A program made the translations under genes and the position numbers. The notes under the pieces are model-generated. The model searched no databases. It was not told where the DNA came from and saw only the letters and a list, made by a program, of their open reading frames with translations. DNA of 22,217 nucleotides, from IMG/VR virus record IMGVR_UViG_2693429700_000019; one strand, 5' to 3'. This stretch comes from a virus (taxonomy: Duplodnaviria; Heunggongvirae; Uroviricota; Caudoviricetes). Positions 13,706 through 18,393 of the stretch are shown here, one piece after another (the first letter of the stretch is position 1; the number at the start of each line of letters is the position of its first letter).

Positions 13706-14017
13706 TTACTCAGGAAATAACGCCCGGATATTCCCAGCCATCTGGCTGGTTATCTTAGCCACTGGTGCAGACTGTGCTTCAAACTTTTTTGAGCTGATTT
13801 GTGTCACAGGTAACATCTCATCATCAGCCCATGCGGCCAGTCGGTAAGCCTCTGCCGGATTCGTCTTCAGAAGTGCCAGCCCGGCCAGAAAAGCCACGCG
13901 TTGGCCGCTTTTGCGGGCTTCTGGTGTAAGGCTGTCCAGCCAGGCGCATGCTTCTCCTTCGTTCTTGACGGCGGCGGGCTTCAGATAGAAACTTATCCGT
14001 CTGGTTGGTGTCGTCAT
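13706..14017 (-). CDS. parR: ParR/StbB-like centromere-binding adaptor (type II partition), 103 aa
   Basis: From Met MTTPTRRISFYLKPAAV..WLDSLTPEARKSGQRVAFLAGLALL.. ; resembles plasmid R1 ParR N-terminal region as I recall it. aaggag SD lies inside the last codons of the upstream ParM gene. Confidence 0.7.
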   Translation of the reverse strand: MTTPTRRISFYLKPAAVKNEGEACAWLDSLTPEARKSGQRVAFLAGLALLKTNPAEAYRLAAWADDEMLPVTQISSKKFEAQSAPVAKITSQMAGNIRALFPE

Positions 14018-14021
14018 TGGT

Positions 14022-14981
14022 TTACTCCTTGTCCATTGCGTACAGCCCATTAACCAGAGCAAACTGTGGCACCCCGTCCGCGATGAAAGTCGCATTAACT
14101 CCGCAGGCTTCGCGGATAGCGGGTGCCACAATCTCCGCCCCGCCACCGACAACCATCACCCGCCCGTAACCCGAAAAAACCGCCAGCGCGCGGATCACGC
14201 GTTGTTTCAGTGTTTCTTCCTTTTCACGAATAACCGCCATCAGGCTGGCGTAATGCGCGTCATTGTGGATGTGCTGGCGCAGCCAGGCTTCATTATGGCG
14301 ATGTTCGATAATGGTATTGGCGATGTGGTGACTGGTGCGCATACCGTTAGTGGCCATCACCGACAGTACGGCATCGGCCATAAGAGAAACGCCTACGTGT
14401 GGATCGCAAAACACCTGGCTGATACCTGCCAGTTGCCCCTGAACCTTTGCCACATCCAGCGTGGTTCCGCCCAAATCCACAATCAGCAGGGATTCAAACG
14501 GACTCATGTCAGCCAGTGCTTTAAAGCCAGCCGGAATGGATTCAGGCATAACCCGTACGTTACGGATAGTGAATGCTTCGCCGTTCTGGTACTCCACCGG
14601 GCGCATGACGTTCGCTTTTTTGCGGTTGATGTTGGCCATGTCCGGCTGTGCGTTTGTGTCGAAATATTCGCTCAGTGGCAGGGTAACAACCACATCCACT
14701 TCCTGTGGCGTGATGTCTGATTTGACCAGCGCGTGATGAATGGCAATGACATTCACATCGCTGTACTGGTATTGCGTGTCGGTCGTCTGGACAAAGCGAT
14801 CGCTGACCGGATCAAAACCATAGCGCACGCCATCAAGCATGTAGTTAGCAGGCTGCGAGCCACCGAACGGCGCAGACCATTCCGACTTGAAGCTGTTCGG
14901 GCTGATGGCGTTGCGGCGTTCGCCGTTCTCAGTCCATGCCAGCTTGATGTTGGTGGAGCCGTCGTCGATGTAAATTTTCAT
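14022..14981 (-). CDS. parM: ParM/StbA-like actin-family segregation ATPase, 319 aa
   Basis: Actin-fold signature motifs IDDGSTNIKL (phosphate 1), LIVDLGGTTLDV (phosphate 2), VMVVGGGAEI (adenosine) and overall colinearity with plasmid R1 StbA/ParM as I recall it. Confidence 0.85.
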   Translation of the reverse strand: MKIYIDDGSTNIKLAWTENGERRNAISPNSFKSEWSAPFGGSQPANYMLDGVRYGFDPVSDRFVQTTDTQYQYSDVNVIAIHHALVKSDITPQEVDVVVTLPLSEYFDTNAQPDMANINRKKANVMRPVEYQNGEAFTIRNVRVMPESIPAGFKALADMSPFESLLIVDLGGTTLDVAKVQGQLAGISQVFCDPHVGVSLMADAVLSVMATNGMRTSHHIANTIIEHRHNEAWLRQHIHNDAHYASLMAVIREKEETLKQRVIRALAVFSGYGRVMVVGGGAEIVAPAIREACGVNATFIADGVPQFALVNGLYAMDKE

Positions 14982-15012
14982 GTCGGTTTTCCTTATGTTG
15001 ATTAATTAATCG

Positions 15013-15125
15013 TTTACGGGATTCTGAAATCCCGTTTTTGCCTGTTTTGTGCGCGCTTCATATATCGCTGCGCGTTTTTTGCTCATTTACGGGATTCGTG
15101 AGTCCCGTTTCTGTCTGTTTTTTGT
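15013..15125. repeat. Two ~38-bp direct repeats, each with an internal hairpin and T-rich tail, spanning the A stop codon and the A-parM intergenic region
   Basis: tttacgggattctgaaatcccgtttttgcctgttttgt (15013-15050) and tttacgggattcgtgagtcccgtttctgtctgttttttgt (15086-15125); internal dyads acgggatt/aatcccgt and acggga/tcccgt. Confidence 0.7.
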
Positions 15126-17880
15126 TTCCACTGGTCAGGCCACCCCGCAGCAGGTCTGCTTTGCGGCTGGCGCGTTCAGTGGTTTCACTGATTCTCTGTG
15201 CGTGCTCTGCGTCGCGGATGGCGCGCAGCATGTCAGAAAGCACGGTAACGGGTGTTTTCATGGTGTTCTGGTCCTGCTGAAGTGTGGATGCCAGGCGTGC
15301 GGCGGCTTCAGGGTCTGATGCCCCCAGCTGTGCCAGATAGCTGGCGACCGGGTTATGGCGGATCTCCGTGCTGCTTACGCCATGATTACGGCTCAGACGC
15401 TGCCAGAGCTGCGTGATTCGGCTGTCCGGGCGGGTATCCGGTTTGCGTACAATTTCAAATCCCTGCGGTGCAATGATGCTGCCGTCAACGTACAGACTGC
15501 CGCCCCGTAACAGGTGCTGCATCTGTTGTTCACCGATATGCAGGCCGAGAGATTCAGCAGACTCCCGCCATTCTTTAGCGAGTAACTCGTGGTTATCAGG
15601 CAAAGGCCGCTGCTGTTTGCGGCTCTGTGTCCAGTTCTGCATTTCATCGCTGCTGTTTTTTGCCTGTTTGTCACGAAGCGAACGCATCAGCGCCCGGCGT
15701 TCGTGCCGTTTCAGTGAGCGCATCCATTCATTTACTTCAACGCCGTCAGGAAGCTGCGGCCACGGTGCTGGCCGTTCTTCCGGCTGTTCTGTCCCGTTGT
15801 TGCCTGTTTCCTGTACACGGGGACAGTTATTGCCACGAGTCCAAGGGGCGGCAGGGCCGCCCTGAAGGTCAAAACCATTTTCGCGGGCGCTGTCTTCCGC
15901 TTCCGGTTTACGTCTTACCAGCTTCCAGTTATCCGGATGCGTGCACACACGGGAGGATTCCCCGATGAATGGCGACCAGATCCCGTAAATCTGTACACTC
16001 TGTTCGCCGTAATCGTTCAGCTCATCTGCGAGGTCGTAGGCTGTGCGAATCAGGTAGTCCTTGCGCGGAACAAGTACGCCACCCTGTTTTTCAATGTAGG
16101 TGGCAAAACATCCGGCATCAGCGGCAGCGAGTACCGCATCCATTGCGTCATCCTTCAGCCGTTGCGGGCCTTCCGGGTTGCGTGCCATCTGGCTGGCAAG
16201 GCGGCGGAGTTCACGCCACACCTGACGGGAGGGGATGCCAAAGAACTGGAACTGGCGGACCCGGTGAAGGCGCGCCCAGCCGATGGCTCGCTCCACGCTC
16301 TCGGCCATTGATTTACCTGTTTCGTGGTCAACGCGTGGCTTGCCCGTTTTCGGGTCGATGCCATCCACGGCGCGGCTGTCCAGGTTCTTTCCGATGTAGG
16401 TGGCGATGTAGCTGGTTGGCGTGCCTTTTGAGCCGTCGACGTACTCCGCCTTAAAGCGTGGGGTAATATCATCACCCAGCTCGTGACGATCTTCCTGAAT
16501 GGCAATATCGCGGGTGTGGGACACAATGGTGTCGATTTCTTCCGGATGAGCAAAGACCATCATATGCCAGTGCACGGTGCCGTCATGGTGAGGCTCCACC
16601 GTGCGGATGCCATACCAGCGCAGGCCGTCGCGGTTCAGTTTCTTGCGGACCGCTGCAAAAAACGTGTTAACCAGGTAATCGCTGGAGTCGCGCATGGTGG
16701 CCCCGTTCCATTTGGGATTCGGATGACCGTTCTCTGTTGTGGCGTGGTATTTTGACGGGCAGGTGACAGTTAGAAACACCGCTTTGTCGCCACGGGCTTC
16801 GGCCAGAAGTTCCAGCCCCTTCATGGTGGCCATCATTTCTGCCTTACGGTGAACCGGGTTACTTACTCCCGCGTAATACACTGTCTCGAGATCAATCGTG
16901 AACCCGTCTTCGTTTTCCAGCATGAAACTTTTCAGGAAATCGCGTGTTTTCTCGCGCTGTGCGCGAAACTCGCTTAACGCGTCCTGGCTCAGATAGGGTG
17001 ATGTTTTTCTGGAAACCAGACAGGCGGCGCGGAGTTGTTCTTCTCTCCACTCGCAACGTAACAGCCACAGTTTGCGTTTCCACCATTCCGCACAGGTCAG
17101 GCGAAGGATTGCGCCCGGCAGCAGCTCCGTGTCCGGTTCGTTCCTCCGGTCTTTATCTGTTGTCAGTGCGTCATAATGTGGAGGCATGATGTGCAGGTGT
17201 AACGCCATGCGGGCCAGCATCTGATACGCCTTCAGCGTTACATCCATGGTCAGTTCGCCATCGGTCGCGCCAAAGCCATCGCAGAGTTTTTCGAAGGTGC
17301 TGCTGAACATCGCCGCCGTCATGGTGGCCAGCGTCTGTATCTGGTGTTTGTTGAGCTGCGGCAGGTAAAGCAAATCGTCCAGGCGTTCGCGTCCGGCAAG
17401 GGAGCGATAACCCGGTGTCAGCCAGTGTCCGTCAGTGCGATCCAGACGTTCGAATATTTTGCGCAGGGTTCCGCGTGCATAGCGTTCCGCCTGCCAGCTC
17501 TTTTTGCCTTTCCGGCGATCGGCTTCCTGTTTTTTGCGCAGGAAGGAGAGGTGGCGAATAAGCGGATCGCGCAGATAGGACGGCAGCAGGCGCAGCGAGG
17601 CCATGGCTTCATCCACCGCGCCGCGTGCCTGTTTTCTGGCGTCTCCTGCCAGTGTGATGGTTTTGTCCTGTTTTTCCTGTGCGTCCAGGCTTTTATTAAT
17701 CAGGTTGCCCAGTGGCGTGGCGGAGAACGCCGCATCAGCCATTTCCTGGCGGCGCTCGTTCTCTACCCGGTAGGCATCCAGCCAGGAGGAAAGCGCGGAT
17801 TCAGGAGCGGGGATCCCCGTTCCTTCACGCCCCACTGCGTGGCGCGGTTGTTGCCAGTCCCTGATGTACTCTGCCGTCAT
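15058..17880 (-). CDS. A: Replication initiation protein A (HUH rolling-circle endonuclease, P2 gpA family), 940 aa
   Basis: HUH-type motif ..DGTVHWHMMVFAHPEE.. and catalytic tyrosine motif ..SYIATYIGKNLD.. in the middle of the protein; position upstream of the cargo locus and downstream of early small ORFs as in P2. Confidence 0.8.
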   Translation of the reverse strand: MTAEYIRDWQQPRHAVGREGTGIPAPESALSSWLDAYRVENERRQEMADAAFSATPLGNLINKSLDAQEKQDKTITLAGDARKQARGAVDEAMASLRLLPSYLRDPLIRHLSFLRKKQEADRRKGKKSWQAERYARGTLRKIFERLDRTDGHWLTPGYRSLAGRERLDDLLYLPQLNKHQIQTLATMTAAMFSSTFEKLCDGFGATDGELTMDVTLKAYQMLARMALHLHIMPPHYDALTTDKDRRNEPDTELLPGAILRLTCAEWWKRKLWLLRCEWREEQLRAACLVSRKTSPYLSQDALSEFRAQREKTRDFLKSFMLENEDGFTIDLETVYYAGVSNPVHRKAEMMATMKGLELLAEARGDKAVFLTVTCPSKYHATTENGHPNPKWNGATMRDSSDYLVNTFFAAVRKKLNRDGLRWYGIRTVEPHHDGTVHWHMMVFAHPEEIDTIVSHTRDIAIQEDRHELGDDITPRFKAEYVDGSKGTPTSYIATYIGKNLDSRAVDGIDPKTGKPRVDHETGKSMAESVERAIGWARLHRVRQFQFFGIPSRQVWRELRRLASQMARNPEGPQRLKDDAMDAVLAAADAGCFATYIEKQGGVLVPRKDYLIRTAYDLADELNDYGEQSVQIYGIWSPFIGESSRVCTHPDNWKLVRRKPEAEDSARENGFDLQGGPAAPWTRGNNCPRVQETGNNGTEQPEERPAPWPQLPDGVEVNEWMRSLKRHERRALMRSLRDKQAKNSSDEMQNWTQSRKQQRPLPDNHELLAKEWRESAESLGLHIGEQQMQHLLRGGSLYVDGSIIAPQGFEIVRKPDTRPDSRITQLWQRLSRNHGVSSTEIRHNPVASYLAQLGASDPEAAARLASTLQQDQNTMKTPVTVLSDMLRAIRDAEHAQRISETTERASRKADLLRGGLTSGNKKQTETGLTNPVNEQKTRSDI

Positions 17881-17886
17881 AGTGAT

Positions 17887-18252
17887 TTACTTCGTCATGC
17901 CATTCAGGGTGTCGCGGCAGACTGTAGCCAGCCGCTGAATTTCCAGCACGGTGTCTTCTGTGTCGGCATGGCGATGTGTGATGCGGATGCTGTCGGCAAT
18001 CACATCGACGATTGCAGAGGATGGGCGCTGGTAAATGCCAATAACGGACGGGGTGCCACCTTCAATGCGGTAAAGCCTGTAATTTCCCTCGTGGCTGTCA
18101 ATCATGTAGCGACCATCAATAACAATCTTTCCGTCAGCGAGCTGCGGTACAGACAGGGATTTCAGGTACATGTCATAACGATCACGCACGCGAGCGGCAA
18201 GATCACGCTCTGTGTTGAGCAGGTATTCAAGAAAGTCGTTGGCGAGAATCAT
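17887..18252 (-). CDS. Hypothetical early protein (121 aa), coupled to A (6-nt gap)
   Basis: ORF immediately upstream of A on the same strand; no recognised motif. Confidence 0.5.
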   Translation of the reverse strand: MILANDFLEYLLNTERDLAARVRDRYDMYLKSLSVPQLADGKIVIDGRYMIDSHEGNYRLYRIEGGTPSVIGIYQRPSSAIVDVIADSIRITHRHADTEDTVLEIQRLATVCRDTLNGMTK

Positions 18253-18393
18253 TGCGGCAATCCTCTTGTTACAGATGTGCGAAGGCCTCCCGCCGCAAGG
18301 TGCAGGAAAGGCCCGGAACAGGAATTAATGGAGTTTGTTTTGCTGCCGGATGAGCTGCTGAAGCCCGACGTGGTTTCCGGCAGTTGGAGGTGC

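Follow-up and report, generated by a model that had tools for sequence, protein, structure and literature searches.

Among described replication initiators, the closest to the one considered here are the A proteins (gpA) of P2-like phages. The P2 origin of replication (ori) lies inside gene A, a near-identical sequence is reported in a K139-like rep gene, and the active-site tyrosine pair of P2 gpA is in motif C (PMC3986222). P2 gpA (761 amino acids) has the PF05840 domain, an HUH motif, a YxxxY pair, and a small alpha/beta domain near the C-terminus; in the P2 genome, gene B is upstream of gene A and old/tin are downstream. In 186-type phages and Klebsiella peduoviruses (e.g., ST15-OXA48phi14.1, with a gpA of 804 amino acids), the early operon has no B homolog and there is no parMR. 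Outside of this family, HUH and tyrosine chemistry is shared by phiX174 gpA, AAV Rep, Helitron, and IS200/IS605 TnpA, and in phiX174, too, the origin is within gene A.

For partition, the described counterpart is the type II system of plasmid R1 (parMRC), which encodes ParM (with StbA_N and ParM_N domains) and a ParR/StbB-family protein, and has repeats immediately upstream of parM. The R1 parC consists of ten 11-bp iterons that flank the promoter. P2-like phages have a variable hotspot that carries defence and partition cargo. In a study of this gpA-gpQ hotspot, parMR downstream of gpA was a common cargo, present in "around a fourth of P2-like phages," and gpA was taken to be a fixed border gene (Rousset et al. 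2022, PMC9122126).

We examined a gpA gene in a 22,217-nucleotide stretch of viral DNA ("the window"). An earlier note had flagged this gene as an unusually long initiator, with about 430 residues beyond the catalytic core that might recruit a helicase or couple replication to partition.

A P2-family initiator with a conserved core

Gene A is on the minus strand at 15058..17880 and encodes a P2-family HUH rolling-circle initiator of 940 amino acids, as identified from the open reading frames (ORFs), Pfam, PHROG, BLASTP, and RefSeq, which annotates a "replication endonuclease" at identical coordinates. The Pfam model for P2 gpA (PF05840) matches aa 179-503 across its entire length (positions 1-321 of 321) with 440 bits (the cut-off is 31.4), and phrog_91, "nicking at origin of replication," spans aa 3-940 (E = 1.3e-275). 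NCBIfam gave no match to the protein. We set aside a weak Pfam match to PSK_trans_fac at aa 518-578, which, with 16 bits (E = 0.024), fell below the cut-off of 28.3. By BLASTP, P2 gpA is 30% identical (E = 4e-82) and collinear over query aa 77-800, and the gpA of 186-type and Klebsiella phages is 42-43% identical over aa 25-796. Gene A encodes an ordinary replication initiator of a well-known family and is very common in E. coli prophages.

The HUH motif (HWHMMVF, aa 437-443, 16552..16572) and the catalytic tyrosine motif (YIATYIGK, aa 491-498, 16387..16410) are where the earlier note had put them, at about residues 440-500, and 442 residues follow K498. H437, H439, Y491, and Y495 do not vary in an alignment of 38 sequences in which the P2 clade is represented. 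The two tyrosines, three residues apart, are the counterpart of the P2 tyrosine pair. The AF2 model is confident in the core (pLDDT about 85-95), and aa 499-687 also belong to the conserved core of the family. When the full-length model was searched with Foldseek, the best hits were the origin-binding domain of AAV Rep68, Helitron, and TnpA, but these were weak, at E = 0.05-0.2, and no hit reached 1e-3. Outside of the motifs, phiX174 gpA and other HUH Reps have no sequence homology to the query, they match its structure only weakly (E about 0.05), and the query has no fused helicase domain.

The N-terminal segment (aa 1-101, 17578..17880, minus strand) is variable and has been swapped between relatives: blastn homology to several of them begins only at nt 304 of the gene, pN is about 0.53 in this segment versus 0.01-0.05 in the core, and two N-terminal types are visible in the gpA alignment.

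The protein is indeed long. In the matches listed from viral contigs, 44 gpA ORFs with the motif are intact; their median length is 758.5 amino acids (range 619-946) and only two of them have 900 or more, both from the query's own lineage. These ORFs were picked by the ori motif itself, so their lengths give no more than an indication of the distribution. All members of the P2 clade have 731-779 amino acids, and the query's clade spans 761-946. P2 gpA itself has 758 amino acids in record OU784750 and 761 in the main P2 cluster (P0155), in line with the figure of about 760 given in the note. However, because P2 gpA aligns to query aa 800, most of the supposed 430-residue extension is normal for the family, in which some 300 residues beyond the catalytic tyrosines are usual. 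Relative to P2, the query has about 35 extra residues at the N-terminus and about 125 at the C-terminus (aa 818-940). Similarly, gpA proteins from Klebsiella, Yersinia, and other phages align with the query only up to about aa 796-804. There is a lineage-specific C-terminal addition, most of which is under protein-level selection (see below), but it begins near aa 818. The question of whether the extra length is ordinary family variation has a split answer: yes up to aa 800, and no for aa 818-940.

A candidate ori island and the mosaic 3' end of gene A

Codons ~677-687 (APWTRGNNCP) contain a candidate ori core of 32 nt, CGCCCCTTGGACTCGTGGCAATAACTGTCCCC, at 15819..15850 on the minus strand, which we identified by its homology to the P2 ori and by its conservation. 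The 20-mer that we take to be the P2 ori is found exactly in P2 gene A, at the codons homologous to this island. An ori-type sequence within the A gene is a trait of the P2 gpA family, and, at the level of sequence, the island appears to be the query's version of it. All 32 nt are identical in a Klebsiella phage gene whose protein is only 42% identical to the query; the region of the HUH motif is less conserved between these two genes (88% identity). P2 and K139 are identical at 22 of 23 nt of the ori. In eight comparisons, the 11 codons of the island show zero synonymous or nonsynonymous changes, and this holds even against Hafnia, for which pS is about 0.65 outside of the island. The key positions do not vary among 12 genes, and the motif occurs in frame within gpA ORFs at 80 or more viral loci. 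Because the protein motif AP[WR]..NNC is conserved as well, part of the constraint on the island may act on the protein. The island falls in a linker that is predicted to be disordered.

The island is a putative nick site. By analogy to P2, where the sequence and position of the cleavage site are reportedly known, the nick would be expected near 15840/15841. We also considered the annotated cleavage site of PM2 as an independent anchor for the ori, but it is at a different place in the PM2 gene (591-592 of locus L004), away from the positional homolog of the island. It backs the similarity of the motif and not its position, and the ori motif is therefore not a marker of the annotated nick in every relative.

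The island marks the junction at which mosaicism sets in. In a relative with a 186-like backbone (L015), nucleotide identity to the query jumps from ~45-70% to ~98% at codon 680, so that a core of the 186/Klebsiella type can bear a query-type tail via recombination at the ori island. Another relative (L011) diverges from the query directly past ...AATAACTGTCCC. Overall, we see recombination breakpoints at ~aa 687/698, ~aa 739, ~aa 903, and ~aa 920. The length of the tail beyond the ori motif ranges from 1 to 254 amino acids among the matches listed from viral contigs, and some intact gpA genes in this set have just 5-16 amino acids there, so the region past the ori appears to be dispensable for the gpA family.

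These patterns suggest that all of the DNA 3' of the ori island would be the start of the known gpA-gpQ hotspot. As in the published survey, parMR is cargo at this location here, and other variants have other cargo in the same place; in contrast to the fixed border assumed there, variability begins inside gene A at about codon 687, past the ori island. Modules 3' of the ori would be exchanged by recombination, with the conserved island as the junction, and the extra length of this gpA would be explained by such swapping of hotspot DNA.

The C-terminal segments and the parMR junction

The post-ori linker (aa 688-757, 15610..15818) is poorly conserved and mostly disordered or of low confidence in the structural models. 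It is followed by a small alpha/beta domain (aa 758-817, 15430..15609) with two helices and a three-stranded sheet, which both models predict with pLDDT of 74-86. This domain aligns with P2 aa ~705-740, G779 is invariant, and similar sequence is present in short-tailed relatives: it is common to P2 gpA and most family members, near the C-terminus. The gpA of 186-type and Klebsiella phages stops just past this domain and has no helical extension.

What sets this lineage apart is the next segment, a helical extension (aa 818-913, 15142..15429, minus strand like the other segments) that is missing from the P2 clade. In the prediction, aa 820-871 form a proximal helical module and aa 877-913 a long helix, with low to moderate confidence (pLDDT about 30-73). 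Across aa 801-903, five comparisons gave dN/dS of 0.04-0.23 and the one with Hafnia gave 0.34, with dS as in the core. This purifying selection implies that aa 818-913 are probably functional, as an accessory segment of the protein.

We found few homologs of the extension. A word-indexed search with the tail only returned just close Escherichia fragments, and an exhaustive phmmer search of 1.84 billion representatives added only fragments of the 876-aa class, a distant gpA of 841 amino acids (P0149) that has the proximal module, and repeat noise. We rejected giant repeat proteins with cadherin or Ig repeats and a junk translation of a repeat (P0144, P0152, and P0147) as repeat or low-complexity noise. 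A Foldseek search with the model of the tail (aa 688-940) against PDB and BFVD found nothing at E ≤ 0.1. The models are weak at aa 570-709 and 818-940, where alignments are shallow, and a fold may have been missed there. In sum, domain and structure searches of the region that the note had singled out (aa ~520-940) reveal the small alpha/beta domain, predicted helices at aa 818-913, and no known domain.

The last ~27 codons and the stop (15058..15141, minus strand) are a different matter. As noticed earlier, they overlap one of a pair of direct repeats. The first parC-like repeat (15083..15124, with a palindrome at 15089-15108) is within the end of gene A, and the second (15010..15051, with a palindrome at 15016-15035) is between gene A and parM. 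The two are 81% identical, and each has the palindrome ACGGGAyT....AATCCCGT, which is found at two sites (four strand matches versus 0.08 expected) and scores as terminator-like on the plus strand. In Hafnia and Salmonella loci, the first repeat is kept despite diverged flanks. The neighboring genes encode the actin-like segregation ATPase ParM (14022..14981, minus strand; Pfam StbA_N, 9.7e-81, and ParM_N, 3e-68) and a partition adaptor of the ParR/StbB type (13706..14017, minus strand; Pfam Plasmid_stab_B, 9.8e-24). They form an operon, as in type II (ParMRC) systems, and the two conserved 42-nt palindromic repeats directly upstream of parM may be the ParR-binding site. Their layout is unlike that of R1 parC: there are two repeats, spaced 73 bp apart, both containing a 20-nt palindrome, and one falls inside the end of gene A. 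A scan of 14850-15300 found no sigma-70-like promoter.

Several observations indicate that aa 914-940 arise incidentally, where the frame of gene A runs on across the parC-like repeat and into the left end of the parMR cassette. The same ~65 nt and TGA close an unrelated 155-aa ORF in another locus (L010), homology to a variant without parMR (L008) ends at about aa 903, and relatives traverse the repeat in differing frames, so that conservation extends to the DNA but not to the reading frame. For aa 904-940, dN/dS is 0.35-1.0 and dS is lowered. The terminal residues are predicted to be disordered (pLDDT < 50).

Alternative accounts of the extra length

The account that we consider probable is that gene A encodes a P2-family HUH initiator with an internal ori, whose length reflects module swapping past the ori, with an accessory segment at aa 818-913 and read-through at aa 914-940. 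The long ORF could instead be a fusion artefact, from a sequencing error or a recent frameshift, but the data refute this. Frameshifted short fragments of gene A do exist, only in some draft assemblies, and nothing else favors an artefact; apparent stand-alone genes beginning at M873 (P0018, P0145, P0146, P0151, P0153, and P0154), which would have implied a fusion, turned out to be contig-edge or frameshifted fragments. The 940-aa ORF is real, because the DNA that encodes the tail is present in 1,368 of 5,426 complete E. coli genomes; furthermore, the 940-aa length class comprises clusters of 707, 16,881, and 3,025 member sequences, it occurs in the isolated phages vB_EcoM-569R5 and PhiR44_2, and its reading frame is under purifying selection. 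Another reading is that the extension has no function as protein and is translated spacer, kept for cis-acting DNA such as origin-accessory sites or regulatory sequences for parMR. This is true of the last ~27 codons, and both the wide range of tail lengths and the low model confidence and lack of a fold match fit with it. For the extension proper, though, we think it unlikely: a low dN/dS with a core-level dS is the opposite of constraint on the DNA, and the region lacks a promoter-like site.

The earlier note proposed functions for the tail in partition or in helicase recruitment, and neither has positive support, since the tail and parMR are each found alone and B is missing from short-tailed relatives. 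In the partition proposal, the helical extension (perhaps with the terminal residues) would be an adaptor that joins the initiator or the origin to ParMR, for instance via ParR or parC. Consistent with this, 1,299 of the 1,368 tail-bearing complete E. coli genomes have the tail-parC-parM junction (about 95% of carriers), the block of post-ori tail and parMR moved jointly onto the 186-like backbone of L015, a partial third copy of the repeat's head adjoins the ori island, and the partition system has been speculated to allow plasmid maintenance (PMC9122126). On the other hand, the 910-aa class (at least 110 contigs) carries no parMR downstream, yet purifying selection maintains its extension as far as about aa 903; in the 876-aa class, parMR is present and the distal helix is missing; the proximal module occurs in P0149, which is known here from the protein alone; the terminal residues shift frame between relatives; and the third copy of the repeat has drifted in relatives and also occurs where parMR is absent. 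The overlap with the repeat is also seen at the end of the unrelated 155-aa ORF. The tail is linked to parMR by physical adjacency, and adjacency with shared descent would be expected to produce the co-occurrence on their own, although a rate of ~95% is compatible with a functional link as well. We judge an adaptor to be improbable, and a more specific version, in which the extension tethers the initiator or the bound origin to ParR-parC and P2-like prophages replicate and segregate as plasmids, to be slightly more doubtful still. Most doubtful of these functional proposals is that the extension recruits a host helicase or its loader (Rep, or DnaB/DnaC) and thereby offsets the absence of P2 gene B. 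It is true that the extension is under protein-level selection and that tblastn detected no homolog of P2 B in the window (best E = 1.0), so this element differs from P2 in lacking B as well as in having parMR. But B is missing from every relative that we examined, including short-tailed ones (the Klebsiella phage KpST15 with 804 amino acids, L011 with 830, and the 186-like backbone of L015), and the K139-like phage PV94 was reported to lack it (PMC3986222), so the absence of B is uncorrelated with tail length. Also, searches of aa 504-940 with Pfam, NCBIfam, PDB sequences, and Foldseek (PDB and BFVD) identified no helicase, loader, or other domain and no Walker motifs.

The main value of this analysis is to clear up the flag on this gene: the initiator is normal, and most of its apparent extension is shared with P2. 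In about one in four complete E. coli genomes, the initiator has a helical addition of ~95 residues that is under selection, from which we infer a probable accessory function. An adaptor role for the extension would support a plasmid-like prophage state, and if the extension were a tether, then ori, tail, parC, and parMR would form a portable replication-partition module that is exchanged at the origin's nick site. More broadly, the 3' quarter of gpA is a mosaic zone and should not be taken as a fixed border in surveys of the hotspot, and the ori island appears to be a recombination junction between diverged phage backbones.

A long member of an abundant initiator family

The 940-aa open reading frame of gene A (15058..17880, minus strand) is labeled "replication endonuclease" by RefSeq at identical coordinates in an E. 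coli chromosome with 99.9% identity, and its product is 98.8% identical to "GpA" of phage vB_EcoM-569R5. We confirmed the motifs and the length difference that an earlier note had reported: HWHMMVF (HUH motif) begins at residue 437, YIATYIGK (catalytic tyrosine motif) begins at residue 491, and P2 gpA is shorter (758–761 aa). The note had also allowed for a fusion artefact. We rejected this reading on the basis of large clusters in the same length class (707, 16,881, and 3,025 member sequences) and presence in many complete genomes: of 5,426 complete E. coli genomes, 936 cover the 6-kb neighbourhood of gene A to 80% or more, and 1,368 have the DNA encoding the tail (the lineage-specific C-terminal part) when this is considered by itself.

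Length is uniform in the P2 clade (731–779 aa among the best 120 matches), and the query's own clade contains classes of 761–765, 830–840, 870–879, 910–916, and 935–946 aa. We also picked a sample of viral contigs by the ori motif. Among the matches listed, the median length of the 44 intact gpA ORFs is 758.5 aa (range 619–946), and only two, both from the query's lineage, reach at least 900 aa. These intact ORFs have 1 to 254 residues after the motif (median 122), and intact genes with merely 5–16 such residues exist. So length does vary within the family, a possibility that the note had raised, but the query, with 254 residues after the motif, is at the long extreme.

The note had counted roughly 430 residues as a C-terminal extension. 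BLASTP aligns residues 77–800 of the query with residues 42–740 (of 758) of P2 gpA (30% identity, E=4e-82), so P2 has its own roughly 300 residues past the catalytic tyrosines; the query differs by the addition of about residues 818–940. Alignments with peduoviruses of Klebsiella and Yersinia and with Escherichia phage Midge stop at about residues 796–804 of the query. Judging from the family alignments and the length survey, the truly additional part is about residues 818–940, along with roughly 35 N-terminal residues. An added C-terminal part therefore stands, but the portion up to residue 800 is shared with P2.

The N terminus is a second swapped module (residues 1–101; 17578–17880): its ~100 residues come in two unrelated types among genes that are otherwise 90–96% identical, with pN of about 0.53 versus 0.01–0.05 in the core. 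Farther upstream, between a 121-aa ORF and a MarR-like gene, RefSeq (per the annotation of L003) marks the remnant of a truncated "ash family protein" pseudogene (about 18250–18369); two relatives (L008 and L012) have a full 205-aa ORF at this position.

A candidate origin within gene A and the mosaic region behind it

The ori cleavage site of P2, which we take to be GCGCCTCGGAGTCCTGTCAA, has exactly one copy in the P2 locus. It lies within gene A, encodes A-P-R-S-P-V-N, and aligns to APWTRGNNC of the query. In the multiple alignment, the conserved core runs to APWTRGNNCP (residues 678–687), and a mosaic region follows. The location of the P2 ori within gene A has been described, as has a nearly identical sequence in a K139-like rep gene (PMC3986222). 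The ori stretch is the best-conserved DNA between diverged A genes: the window and a Klebsiella phage match at 32/32 positions of the ori island (32 nt, codons ~677–687), compared with 88% in the HUH-motif region and 42% identity at the protein level, and P2 matches K139 at 22/23 positions. The 11 ori codons show zero synonymous and zero nonsynonymous changes in eight pairwise comparisons, even against Hafnia, where pS is ~0.65 elsewhere, and 12 genes all agree at key positions. In the full-length structural model, the motif falls in a low-confidence linker (residues 661–709), which fits constraint acting on DNA. Because of the match to the presumed P2 ori, the DNA identity, and the lack of substitutions, we place a candidate ori core at 15819–15850 (minus strand), with the caveat that PM2 has its annotated cleavage site (L004:591-592) elsewhere in the gene. 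In PM2, codons about 562–571 of gene XII, which correspond in position to the P2 ori, carry an ori-like motif (GCCCCTTGGAGCACTGAAAATAACTGT), yet the annotated site lies ~420 codons upstream and has another P2-like sequence (GCAGAGTTCACAATAAA).

Relative to gene A of the window, blastn places breakpoints at about residues 102, 687/698, 739, 903, and 920. For example, a relative with a 186-like early region (L015:1-8680; CI repressor, CP76, Fil, TraR-like protein, and Dam methylase) combines a diverged gpA core with the query-type post-ori tail and the partition genes parMR. At codon 680 exactly, at the ori island, its nucleotide identity to the window steps up from about 45–70% to about 98%, and it stays high through parMR. 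The 830-aa relative L011 is identical up to ...AATAACTGTCCC and diverges directly after. These junctions indicate that the variable zone starts within gene A, at the ori island, whereas the variable hotspot described in the literature for P2-like phages is the interval between gpA and gpQ, where "around a fourth" of the phages have a putative partition system (PMC9122126). Other cargo at the hotspot includes three reverse-strand genes in place of parMR (L008:6779-9306; 269, 112, and 459 aa; no Pfam match) and an AAA ATPase and peptidase S8 gene pair just past parMR (L016:8557-10826); both are possibly defence systems.

Anatomy and maintenance of the tail

Two AlphaFold2 models (residues 688–940 alone and full length) agree on the anatomy of residues 688–940. 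Residues 688–757 are mostly of low confidence. Residues 758–817 form a small, confidently predicted domain (two helices and a three-stranded sheet; pLDDT 74–86) that is common to P2 and many short-tailed relatives. Residues 818–913 are predicted, at low to moderate confidence, to be helical, with one long helix at 877–913, and residues 914–940 are predicted to be disordered. The proximal helical module is also present in a distant 841-aa gpA (P0149), so it is not a unique acquisition but an element that family members may or may not have. Searches of Pfam, NCBIfam, and PDB sequences found no domain beyond residue 503, and Foldseek of the tail against PDB and BFVD found no match; the best structural neighbours of the full model are HUH nucleases, with weak matches. 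Residues 570–652 (about 15925–16173) are strongly conserved across the family (AADAGCFATYIEKQGG, many invariant residues) and have pLDDT <50 in the full-length model; they may make up a domain that folds only with a binding partner or that a deeper alignment would let the model resolve.

Pairwise Nei-Gojobori dN/dS for residues 801–903 is 0.04–0.07 against three close relatives, 0.17–0.23 against two others, and 0.34 against Hafnia. The core has 0.08–0.14 and similar dS, and the extension is therefore kept as protein. For residues 904–940, dN/dS is 0.35–1.0 and dS is lowered in close comparisons, the signature of DNA-level constraint.

The junction with parMR and the role of the tail

Downstream of gene A are parM (StbA_N and ParM_N) and a ParR/StbB-family gene. 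The paired 42-nt direct repeats of the earlier note are real (15010–15051 and 15083–15124), and repeat 1 (15083–15124) is inside the last codons of gene A. They lie 73 bp apart, directly upstream of parM, each with a 20-nt palindrome (ACGGGAyT....AATCCCGT; 2 sites, or 4 strand matches, versus 0.08 expected), and are conserved in Hafnia and Salmonella loci. The pair is a candidate parC, although its architecture is unlike that of R1 parC. On the plus strand, each repeat is also scored as a terminator-like hairpin with a T-run behind it. A third, partial copy of the repeat head (AAACAGGCAACAACGGGA, 1 mismatch; 3 matches to the pattern versus 0.02 expected) is at 15792–15809 (minus strand; codons about 692–698), ~10 nt downstream of the ori island. 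The L011 breakpoint is just upstream of this copy, at the 3' edge of the island. The copy drifts among relatives, is also found without parMR, and could have arisen by chance, be left over from recombination, or act as a ParR half-site.

The last ~27 residues are a by-product of the cassette junction, for three reasons. In L010 (876-aa class), gene A and parM are separated by an unrelated 155-aa ORF (L010:6628-7095; no Pfam match) that ends in the same ~65 nt, repeat, and TGA as gene A of the window (the last ~20 codons). In L008 (910-aa class), which is without parMR, homology stops at about residue 903. And repeat 1 is read in different frames: the window encodes KKQTETGLTNPVNEQKTRSDI, L015 encodes KNRQKRDSQIP after a 1-nt deletion, and in Hafnia the stop falls within the palindrome.

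What might the tail do? The earlier note was correct in its observation, and its interpretation of an acquired C-terminal addition is partly supported. It had offered two ideas about function. If the tail recruited a helicase or compensated for a missing gene B, then the absence of a gpB homolog from the window would be expected, but gpB is also missing from every relative that we fetched, including short-tailed ones, and from PV94 (PMC3986222). Nor does the tail have a helicase or loader signature. Coupling of the initiator to partition would account for the tail-parC-parM junction in 1,299 of the 1,368 genomes with the tail and for the joint movement of tail and parMR in L015. We consider coupling improbable, as each occurs without the other (L008 has the tail without parMR, and L010 has parMR with an 876-aa-class gene A, which lacks the distal tail), and adjacency and shared descent account for the association.

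Overall, we regard the gene A product as an unexceptional and abundant protein of a known family, one whose C-terminal architecture is a variant. By analogy to P2 gpA, it would nick the origin in its own gene via HUH and YxxxY chemistry and start rolling-circle replication. P2 gpA acts in cis. We speculate that, because the origin precedes ~250 codons of the same gene, a longer post-ori tail would prolong the time for which the nascent protein, its catalytic part already folded, remains tethered close to its own origin, which could favour action in cis.
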